DNA of 64,000 nt, from NCBI RefSeq assembly GCF_058153355.1, contig NZ_CM177019.1; one strand, given 5' to 3'. The position numbers were made by a program, and so were the translations under genes. Positions 61,615 through 64,000 of this stretch are shown here, one piece after another (within the stretch, counting starts at the first letter, position 1; every line of letters starts with the position of its first letter). Under the pieces are notes generated by a model, which did not search any database, was not told the DNA's origin, and saw nothing but the letters and a program-made list of their open reading frames with translations.

Positions 61615-62187
61615 GTACCTGTCTCACCGCTGTAATCACAGCCTCTCACGATTTACTCGCTCCTGCTGGCACATGCAGGAGCCTGATACCAGATATCGGA
61701 TATCTTTAACATTCTTATCACTATTGCTTCCATCTCACCGGCTCTTTGAAGCGCATATTACAGGCTAAATTCTGAAATTATGGTATGGAATAAAAAAGTG
61801 ATATATAAGCGATAACAATGAATTAATGCACATTAATGCCTGTAACAGCCATTAATTATTTATATTTATCGCTCAGAATCACACACTTCCCAAGAAAACA
61901 TCACCATGCTGAATATTAATATTTCTCCTGGTCGGTGTTTTCATCCGGTGAAACATTTGACATTGATTGACATCGATCATTAAAATCCGCGCGATTAATA
62001 TTATTGGCTACAATCTGAAATTGTCTGACATTTAATGTCATATTCGCACTACCAATTAATACAACAATTAATAGAAAAAGTCTCTTATAAATTTATATAA
62101 CGTATATTTTCCACTCGAATCATTCATAAAAAGGATGATTACGCCGTAACAGTTAACGTATCGGGATCATGAAAAGGAATTCACCCT

Positions 62188-62871
62188 ATGAGCATCAAAA
62201 AAGCACTATTAAGCATGTTGATAACATTGCCACTCTGGGTATTGACTGGGTGTGACTATATTGAGAAAGCGAATCTGATCGACGATCTTGCCAAACAGCA
62301 AGAATTGCAAAAAAGTAAAATAGAGATTCTTGAAAAACAACAAGAACAATATAAAAGAAAAATAGAAATTATTGAAAATCAACAAATTAATATTGCAAAC
62401 ACCACTAAAGTGCTGGCGGGTGTAGTAAAGACGGTCAAAGACAAACAGAACGAATTTGTCTTCACCGAATTTAACCCAGCACAAACAAAATACTTCATTT
62501 TAAACAATGGCTCGGTTGGTTTGGCAGGCCGGGTGCTGTCTATTGATGCAGTTGAAAATGGTAGCGTTATTCGTATTTCGCTGGTCAACCTATTAAGCGT
62601 TCCCGTATCAAATATTGGCTTTCAAGCCACATGGGGCAGTGAAAGACCCACCGATACCAAAGCGCTGTCGAAGTGGCAACAATTACTTTTCAACACCACC
62701 ATGAACTCCACCCTGCAATTAATGCCTGGTCAATGGCAAGACATTAACCTGACATTAAAAGGCGTTTCACCTAATAACCTGAAGTATCTGAAATTGTCCA
62801 TCAATATGGCCAATCTCCAGTTCGACACTGTTCAACCTGCTGAAACTCAGCAGCGGAAAAACAAAAAATAA
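62188..62871 (+). CDS. Putative lipoprotein with N-terminal coiled-coil
   Basis: 227 aa; signal peptide with lipobox (…TLPLWVLTGC); AT-rich gene preceded by ~480 bp AT-rich non-coding DNA; not part of the K-12 yibL–lldP junction as recalled. Confidence 0.55.
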   Translation: MSIKKALLSMLITLPLWVLTGCDYIEKANLIDDLAKQQELQKSKIEILEKQQEQYKRKIEIIENQQINIANTTKVLAGVVKTVKDKQNEFVFTEFNPAQTKYFILNNGSVGLAGRVLSIDAVENGSVIRISLVNLLSVPVSNIGFQATWGSERPTDTKALSKWQQLLFNTTMNSTLQLMPGQWQDINLTLKGVSPNNLKYLKLSINMANLQFDTVQPAETQQRKNKK

Positions 62872-62915
62872 ATGCAGCTTCTGCGCTTATATCAAGGAAT
62901 AGAGAACATCAATAA

Positions 62916-64000
62916 TGAACAAAATTTTTAAAGTTATCTGGAATCCAGCGACGGGCAGCTATAGCGTTGCCAGCGAAACGGCGAAAAGTCGCGGAAAGAA
63001 GAGCGGGCGCAGTAAGCTGTTAATTTCTGCATTGGTTGCGGGTGGATTACTCTCATCAGTTGGGGCCAATGCTTCGGTTTCACTTGACGGTGGTAAAAGC
63101 GCAGAGGCAACGCCACTCAGTAATGACTGGATTGCCATTGGTAAAGGTGCTGTCGCATCATCAGAGCCAAAGGGTTCAGGAACAGCGAATACAGGAAGTG
63201 TTGCGGTAGGGATAGGTTCGACCGCCGGGGTGGGCAGTACTGCAATTGGCTTCTCAAGTAACTCATCAGGAGAAAGATCGGTTGGCTTAGGGCAATCAAC
63301 GGTATCAACGGGTAGCCGAGCTATCGCCATCGGCAGTGCAGCTAAAGCCACCAGCGATTATAGCCTCGCACTGGGGAACGCTGCTCAAGCTAAAGGCGAA
63401 GGTGCCATGGCGTTGGGCAAGGATACGGTAGCAAGTGCTGAGTATTCTCTTGCATTAGGGAGATTAGCAAATGCGTCAGGAACTAACTCCATTGCCACAG
63501 GCAATGAGAGTACTGCTAGTGGTGAAGACAGCCTCGCAGTAGGTAGACTGTCCGTCGCCAGCGCCGCAAACGCGGTTGCAATCGGCGCAGAGACCGAAGC
63601 CGCTGAAAATGCAACGGCAGTGGGTACTAAAGCGGAGGCAAATGGGCTTAACAGTATCGCGTTGGGCTACGGGAGTATTGCTAATACCGATAACACGATT
63701 GCTCTGGGTAATCAAAGCCAGGCAATCGCTGCGGGCGCCATTGCCATCGGTCAAGGTAACAAAGCTGACGGCGTAAATGCAATCGCACTGGGAAATGGGA
63801 GTATTACCGGTGGGGCAAATGCCATTGCTCTTGGACAAGGCAGTTATGCCGGTTTAGAAAATGGCATTGCAATTGGTGCTCAGGCCACTGCTCAAGGTAA
63901 AAATTCAATTGCTCTGGGGGCTGGTTCTGTCGCGACTGAAGCGGATACTGTCTCCGTGGGTAACACAACAGCTCAGCGAAAAATTGTCAATATGGCAAAA
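62916..64000 (+). CDS. Trimeric autotransporter adhesin (YadA-like; EhaG/UpaG-type), 5' portion; continues past window end
   Basis: Extended signal peptide region [29 protein letters not shown]…[19 protein letters not shown] followed by repetitive SxGxxSxAxGxxAxA head/neck-type repeats (…[17 protein letters not shown]…[35 protein letters not shown]…). Confidence 0.8.

Follow-up and report, generated by a model that had tools for sequence, protein, structure and literature searches.

Positions 61615–64000 of the window (the 64,000-nucleotide stretch, one strand, of contig NZ_CM177019.1, assembly GCF_058153355.1, that was analysed here) carry, with little room for doubt, the start of a sadB–trimeric autotransporter adhesin (TAA) operon, situated between the mtl genes with yibL on one side and the lld operon on the other. 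It corresponds in Escherichia coli to sadBA of Salmonella, and by position the adhesin is orthologous to EhaG of enterohaemorrhagic and UpaG of uropathogenic E. coli. The identification is carried by the identities of the two genes, their domain architecture, the synteny of the locus, its absence from K-12 and the relationships among its alleles. The adhesin gene is cut by the window end and was completed from other public records. The locus is laid out as follows.

61252–61614, + strand: yibL, core-genome flank on the left (full-length match to NCBIfam NF008244, YibL equivalog, E = 8e-57)
61615–62187, no strand: AT-rich intergenic/regulatory region of 573 bp upstream of the operon (GC 0.356)
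61658–61681, + strand: stem-loop GCTCCTGC-N8-GCAGGAGC just 3' of yibL (fold and conservation)
61957–61986, + strand: candidate sigma-70 promoter, TTGACA-18-TAAAAT (11/12 consensus, cross-allele conservation)
62188–62871, + strand: sadB orthologue, gene of a 227-amino-acid lipoprotein (PDB 4C47 match, lipobox)
62872–62914, + strand: 43-bp spacer between sadB and the adhesin gene, operon-like (from the reading-frame coordinates)
62915–64000, + strand: adhesin gene, 5' 1086 nt, 362 of 1571 codons (ESPR and 12 YadA_head stretches)

The adhesin open reading frame (ORF) begins at ATG 62915 and leaves the window after 362 codons. Pfam identifies in this fragment an ESPR domain (PF13018, residues 1–48, E = 6e-16, above cutoff) and 12 YadA_head stretches (E = 2.4e-45), and its PDB matches are TAA head structures (BpaC, YadA). 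The preliminary description had read the same segment as a ~570-bp AT-rich non-coding stretch after yibL, a 227-residue lipoprotein with an LTGC lipobox and the start of a YadA-like adhesin, and all three elements are borne out; it had also proposed extending the sequence to find a C-terminal YadA anchor and comparing the adhesin with EhaG and UpaG. Exact-sequence look-up of the lipoprotein led to three public contigs. Contig L004 (GCA_043012465.1) is 100% identical to window positions 52318–64000 (11,683 bp), and contig L003 differs from the window at 1 of 11,813 positions. The adhesin ORF is 1571 residues long in both (L004:10598–15313). The Pfam scan of the L004 protein gives ESPR, further YadA_head stretches, 12 YadA_stalk stretches and the expected YadA_anchor at residues 1511–1571 (E = 5e-19); the Hia anchor structures 3EMO and 2GR7 match residues 1484–1571. 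The C-terminal third matches crystal fragments of Salmonella SadA (STM3691), including 2YO0 (E = 1.4e-139) and 2YO3 (E = 3e-90), and there are further matches to 2YNZ, 2YO2, 3ZMF and 2YNY. An extended, ESPR-type Sec signal peptide, a passenger of head and coiled stalk and a YadA-type anchor (the last outside the window) place the protein among type Vc autotransporters. By analogy with the literature on related adhesins, the product would be a surface-displayed adhesive homotrimer. End-to-end identity of the adhesin is 74% to EhaG of O157:H7 Sakai (ECs_4480) and 67% to UpaG (annotated in ATCC 25922). EhaG shares its position between yibL and lldP, its ESPR–head–stalk–anchor architecture and nearly its length (1588 versus 1571 residues). 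UpaG has the same locus and architecture, and differs in being 207 residues shorter and in a head that is unalignable at the DNA level. PMC7247748 treats EhaG, UpaG and SadA as orthologues by position whose passengers have diverged; there, and in PMC5595812, they are credited with extracellular matrix binding, autoaggregation and biofilm formation.

The lipoprotein N-terminus, read directly, is MSIKKALLSMLITLPLWVLTGC followed by DY, with an LTGC lipobox, Cys22 and, at position +2, Asp23. Residues 1–21 form the signal peptide and are followed by a coiled coil and a C-terminal β-sandwich domain. A PDB sequence search aligns residues 23–227 with residues 3–207 of 4C47, the Salmonella SadB structure (STM3690), over 205 residues without gaps (E = 2.6e-71). 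Over the whole alignment 53% of the residues are identical; the coiled coil is less conserved (42%) than the C-terminal domain (57%). The ungapped match to the whole 4C47 chain points to the combination of coiled coil and SadB/YajI β-sandwich, and in RefSeq its homologues are listed as ‘SadB/YajI family lipoprotein’ or ‘DUF3251’. Salmonella SadB forms a trimer that has a coiled coil of nine heptads and three β-sandwich domains; its inner-membrane localization was predicted from the Asp at +2 and then verified, and it raises the surface display and protease resistance of SadA (PMC3953254). The trimer and the role in adhesin display have been demonstrated only for Salmonella SadB and SadA (PMC3953254). 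In Salmonella, sadB and sadA form one operon, flanked by the mtl and lld operons, with sadB 44 bp upstream of sadA (Grin et al. 2014, PMC3953254); the window has the same position and the same strand for both genes, and its spacer of 43 bp fits an operon. It differs from the Salmonella system in a lipoprotein identity of only 53% and in the divergence of the adhesin's head and N-terminal passenger. The suggestion in the preliminary description that the lipoprotein could be a dedicated partner of the adhesin is borne out by its orthology to a published helper, and a helper function would follow for the window protein by that orthology. According to a 2026 survey, SadB homologues occur only in Enterobacterales, and SadB and TpgA are the only TAA helpers described (bioRxiv 10.64898/2026.01.22.700529). 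TpgA, the helper of AtaA in Acinetobacter, is an unrelated protein with a BamE-like domain plus an OmpA domain that binds peptidoglycan, and it works at the outer membrane and peptidoglycan, whereas SadB is an inner-membrane trimeric lipoprotein.

The neighbour yibL is the same in all strains compared, and the order yibL–lipoprotein–TAA–lldP is found in MFDS1022581, 2020CK-00188, ATCC 25922 (where the adhesin is annotated upaG) and O157:H7 Sakai; in strains of the same allele lineage as the window (L001, L008) the TAA is likewise followed by lldP at the right junction. In K-12 MG1655 yibL (b3602) and lldP (b3603) are 371 bp apart, so the gene order given for K-12 in the preliminary description, and the absence of the locus there, are correct. 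Neither of the findings named there as refuting, a missing YadA-type anchor or presence of the locus at this position in K-12, therefore holds. Alignment places the left border ~6 nt past the yibL stop, where K-12 homology ends; it resumes ~55–70 nt past the adhesin stop, within a repetitive extragenic palindromic (REP)-like element upstream of lldP. The segment missing from K-12 measures ~6 kb in the window strain. Contigs L003 (15444–15498) and L004 both break ~55 nt past the adhesin stop in a REP-like repeat (GCGTGATGCGCTACGCTTATCAG...), the same element that marks the right border of the K-12 deletion, and in L003 the 55 nt after the stop align with L001 and L008. Of 5426 complete E. coli genomes, 4154 (77%) match the C-terminal 869 bp of the adhesin gene, each at a single chromosomal place. 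By megablast, window positions 61615–64000 match 1942 genomes, the best at only 93.5% identity, and the flank 55000–61614 is 95–99% identical in nearly all genomes. E. coli 24AR0376 (L009 2501–3342) has ~110 nt of the window-type 3' region after yibL, then IS1 and then a truncated fimbrial usher gene; this is an independent loss or rearrangement of the sadB–adhesin locus mediated by an insertion sequence (IS).

Several points weigh against this identification or parts of it. No family in Pfam or NCBIfam scores above its curated cutoff on the lipoprotein, and the sub-threshold hits are coiled-coil noise [PhaP_Bmeg, 17.7 bits (cutoff 28.3); SA0632_fam_LP, 18.2 bits (cutoff 70)]; because no hidden Markov model family is above threshold, the SadB assignment is drawn from the PDB sequence match and the RefSeq naming. 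The window ends at codon 362 of the adhesin gene; the anchor is seen in the identical contig and the lldP junction in related strains. The promoter is assigned from a conserved consensus match. The sadB orthologue of O157:H7 Sakai (L007 38508–39190) begins ATG AAC TAG AAG..., so that codon 3 is an amber stop, and its RefSeq annotation consists only of a 193-residue ORF from an internal TTG, without signal peptide and lipobox. EhaG has nevertheless been reported to be functional, which implies that SadB may not be strictly required; going by the gene sequence, the SadB helper may be non-functional in the strain background in which EhaG was characterized.

The loci of MFDS1022581, 2020CK-00188 and the UpaG and EhaG types were compared with the window by sliding identity. 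MFDS1022581, 2020CK-00188 and the window share a minority allele lineage, within which the intergenic region and sadB are 94–99% identical (the intergenic region alone 98–99%) and the adhesin head (~62900–63500) drops to 85–88% or becomes unalignable. Compared with the UpaG type, the intergenic region and sadB are 76–81% identical (the intergenic region 76–78%); compared with the EhaG type, most of the intergenic region cannot be aligned, and the identity of sadB by the sliding comparison is ~70–77%. The lipoprotein itself is 78% identical to the partner of the UpaG type and 69% identical to that of the EhaG type, whose Sakai copy carries TAG at codon 3 where the window copy is intact. EhaG and UpaG are 62% identical to one another, the nearest adhesin allele in a complete genome is 82% identical to that of the window, and the deep adhesin lineages span 62–82% amino acid identity. 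No named adhesin model in NCBIfam comes near its cutoff on the full adhesin, so that it is neither EhaG nor UpaG sensu stricto and represents a further allele type. The window carries a rare divergent allele with a hypervariable head. One could go further and see in it a third, functionally distinct adhesin type with its own receptor specificity, and the parallel divergence of lipoprotein and adhesin could likewise be a sign of allele-specific pairing of helper and client. The grounds for this are an adhesin 67–74% identical to EhaG and UpaG, the hypervariable head, a SadB at 78% and 69% identity to its counterparts and the distinct upstream region. We regard this proposal as doubtful.

The region upstream of the operon contains no ORF longer than 41 amino acids in 61615–62187, and the small ORFs present there have no support. 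An Rfam scan of 60700–64000 returned nothing at E ≤ 1 and so gives no evidence of a small RNA or riboswitch in the long leader. Positions ~61950–62005 are the only intergenic block kept across all three allele lineages, and the TTGACA-18-TAAAAT site falls inside it. The total count of promoter-like sites in a promoter/terminator scan was not above that of shuffled sequences; this site was retained because it is located in the sole block conserved across alleles, and we propose it as the candidate operon promoter from consensus match and conservation. The sequence 61612–61700 after yibL folds at -27.2 kcal/mol (z = -2.87); the stem-loop at 61658–61681 within it is identical in the UpaG-type allele and has no U tract, and it is possibly a yibL 3' hairpin. 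Repeated TGACAT-type motifs occupy 61955–62043, overlapping or just downstream of the candidate promoter, and a TTGACAT copy is conserved across alleles. Near-perfect palindrome TGACATTTAATGTCA lies at 62026–62040, and a second palindrome with 12-nt arms (ATTAATGCCTGT/ACAGCCATTAAT) at 61832–61856. These repeats and palindromes could be regulator binding sites.

This region bears on whether the locus is cryptic or decaying, that is, never expressed or non-functional in the window strain. PMC5012682, citing Totsika 2012, reports that H-NS represses upaG, with which an AT-rich upstream region is in keeping, and the native expression conditions of Salmonella sadBA are given as unknown (PMC3953254); such silencing would favour a cryptic locus. 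Against it, both ORFs are intact, at 227 and 1571 residues (the latter in the identical contig), and the promoter-like block is conserved. A cryptic or decaying operon is, on balance, unlikely.

The preliminary description had called the locus an AT-rich insertion, and only the first half of that phrase can be kept, in part. GC in 61615–62187 is 0.356 compared with a whole-window mean of 0.497, and only ~4% of 573-bp windows have a GC of 0.345 or less; the low GC (0.33–0.39) is limited to the intergenic region and, within the lipoprotein gene, to its 5' half, and the adhesin gene, with a GC of 0.517, is not AT-rich. The low GC of the first ~1 kb, the absence from K-12 and a divergence between strains much greater than in the flanks would suit a recently acquired genomic island, a strain-specific AT-rich horizontal insertion. 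However, the segment missing from K-12 contains no integrase, tRNA or IS element and has no direct repeats at its borders; 77% of complete E. coli genomes have the locus at this very site, in a single copy per chromosome; and in Salmonella and Shigella it has the conserved position between mtl and lld, the K-12 state being described as a ~5-kb deletion (PMC3953254). Allele lineages as deep as those above argue for long residence, and in 24AR0376 the locus has been lost by an IS1 rearrangement. A recent acquisition is accordingly very unlikely, and a mobile island was rejected on the lack of mobility genes and border repeats and on synteny across genera. From its occurrence in 4154 of the 5426 genomes and the published deletion, the polarity of ‘insertion’ is wrong: the locus is better read as deleted in K-12, which belongs to the minority that lost it. 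The same occurrence, taken together with the pattern of allele divergence, indicates that the locus is old, with lineages that run deep and an adhesin head that is hypervariable.

E. coli has a SadB paralogue, YajI (PDB 2JWY), that is likewise a lipoprotein, has a coiled coil by prediction and shares the β-sandwich topology (PMC3953254); it differs in lying at another locus (yajC–secDF to nrdR), without a linked autotransporter, and in being only ~14% identical to SadB, and the window lipoprotein is clearly of the SadB type and not YajI. That the lipoprotein has a housekeeping role like that of YajI, and is no more than an unrelated neighbour of the adhesin, is hardly credible: YajI is indeed unlinked to any autotransporter (PMC3953254) and the Sakai orthologue is seemingly inactivated beside an intact EhaG, but the lipoprotein shares 53% identity with SadB (E = 2.6e-71) compared with 14% between SadB and YajI (PMC3953254), the spacing and shared strand are in keeping with an operon, its loss has always gone with that of the adhesin (K-12), and its allele lineages track those of the adhesin.

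For the sadB–TAA operon as identified here, regulation, helper function and adhesive phenotype can be sketched by orthology with the systems in the literature. The operon would be kept silent by H-NS through the long AT-rich upstream region, and transcription would probably start from the TTGACA-18-TAAAAT site and run through both genes. The extended ESPR signal peptide would direct the adhesin to Sec for passage across the inner membrane. The lipoprotein would be lipidated at Cys22, kept in the inner membrane because of the Asp at +2, and trimerize through its N-terminal coiled coil, so positioned that its three β-sandwich domains may aid in-register assembly and export of the three adhesin chains. 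The C-terminal YadA anchors, with four β-strands per chain, would form a 12-stranded barrel inserted by the β-barrel assembly machinery (BAM), leaving on the surface a head/stalk fibre that is predicted to mediate extracellular matrix binding, autoaggregation and biofilm formation.

Two further features were noted elsewhere in the window. Between yibF (37357–37965, - strand) and yibH (54698–55834, - strand), where K-12, Sakai and 2020CK-00188 have an rhs element, the window instead has on the + strand (38148–54000) two VgrG-like genes at 38148–40493 and 42511–44712 (Phage_GPD and Gp5 domains). These are followed by AT-rich ORFs without family match and an 829-residue EF-hand protein, and the segment also encodes a 504-residue protein with an S-type pyocin/colicin DNase domain (49978–51492) and a 413-residue EF-hand and N-acetylmuramidase protein (52224–53465) with a small ORF downstream. 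By its domain content, the segment resembles an island of orphan type VI secretion spike and effector/immunity genes. The REP-derived naRNA4 (nucleoid-associated non-coding RNA 4) lies at 26134–26212 (+ strand; Rfam 63.1 bits, E = 8.6e-9, above the gathering score).

Published work already covers the operon and where it lies, its deletion from K-12, the crystal structure of the lipoprotein and its function as a helper, and the part that EhaG, UpaG and SadA play in adhesion. The sole specific point here is an uncommon allele with a divergent head, in line with the allelic diversity already known at this locus and of possible relevance to adhesin typing or to the coverage of vaccine antigens.
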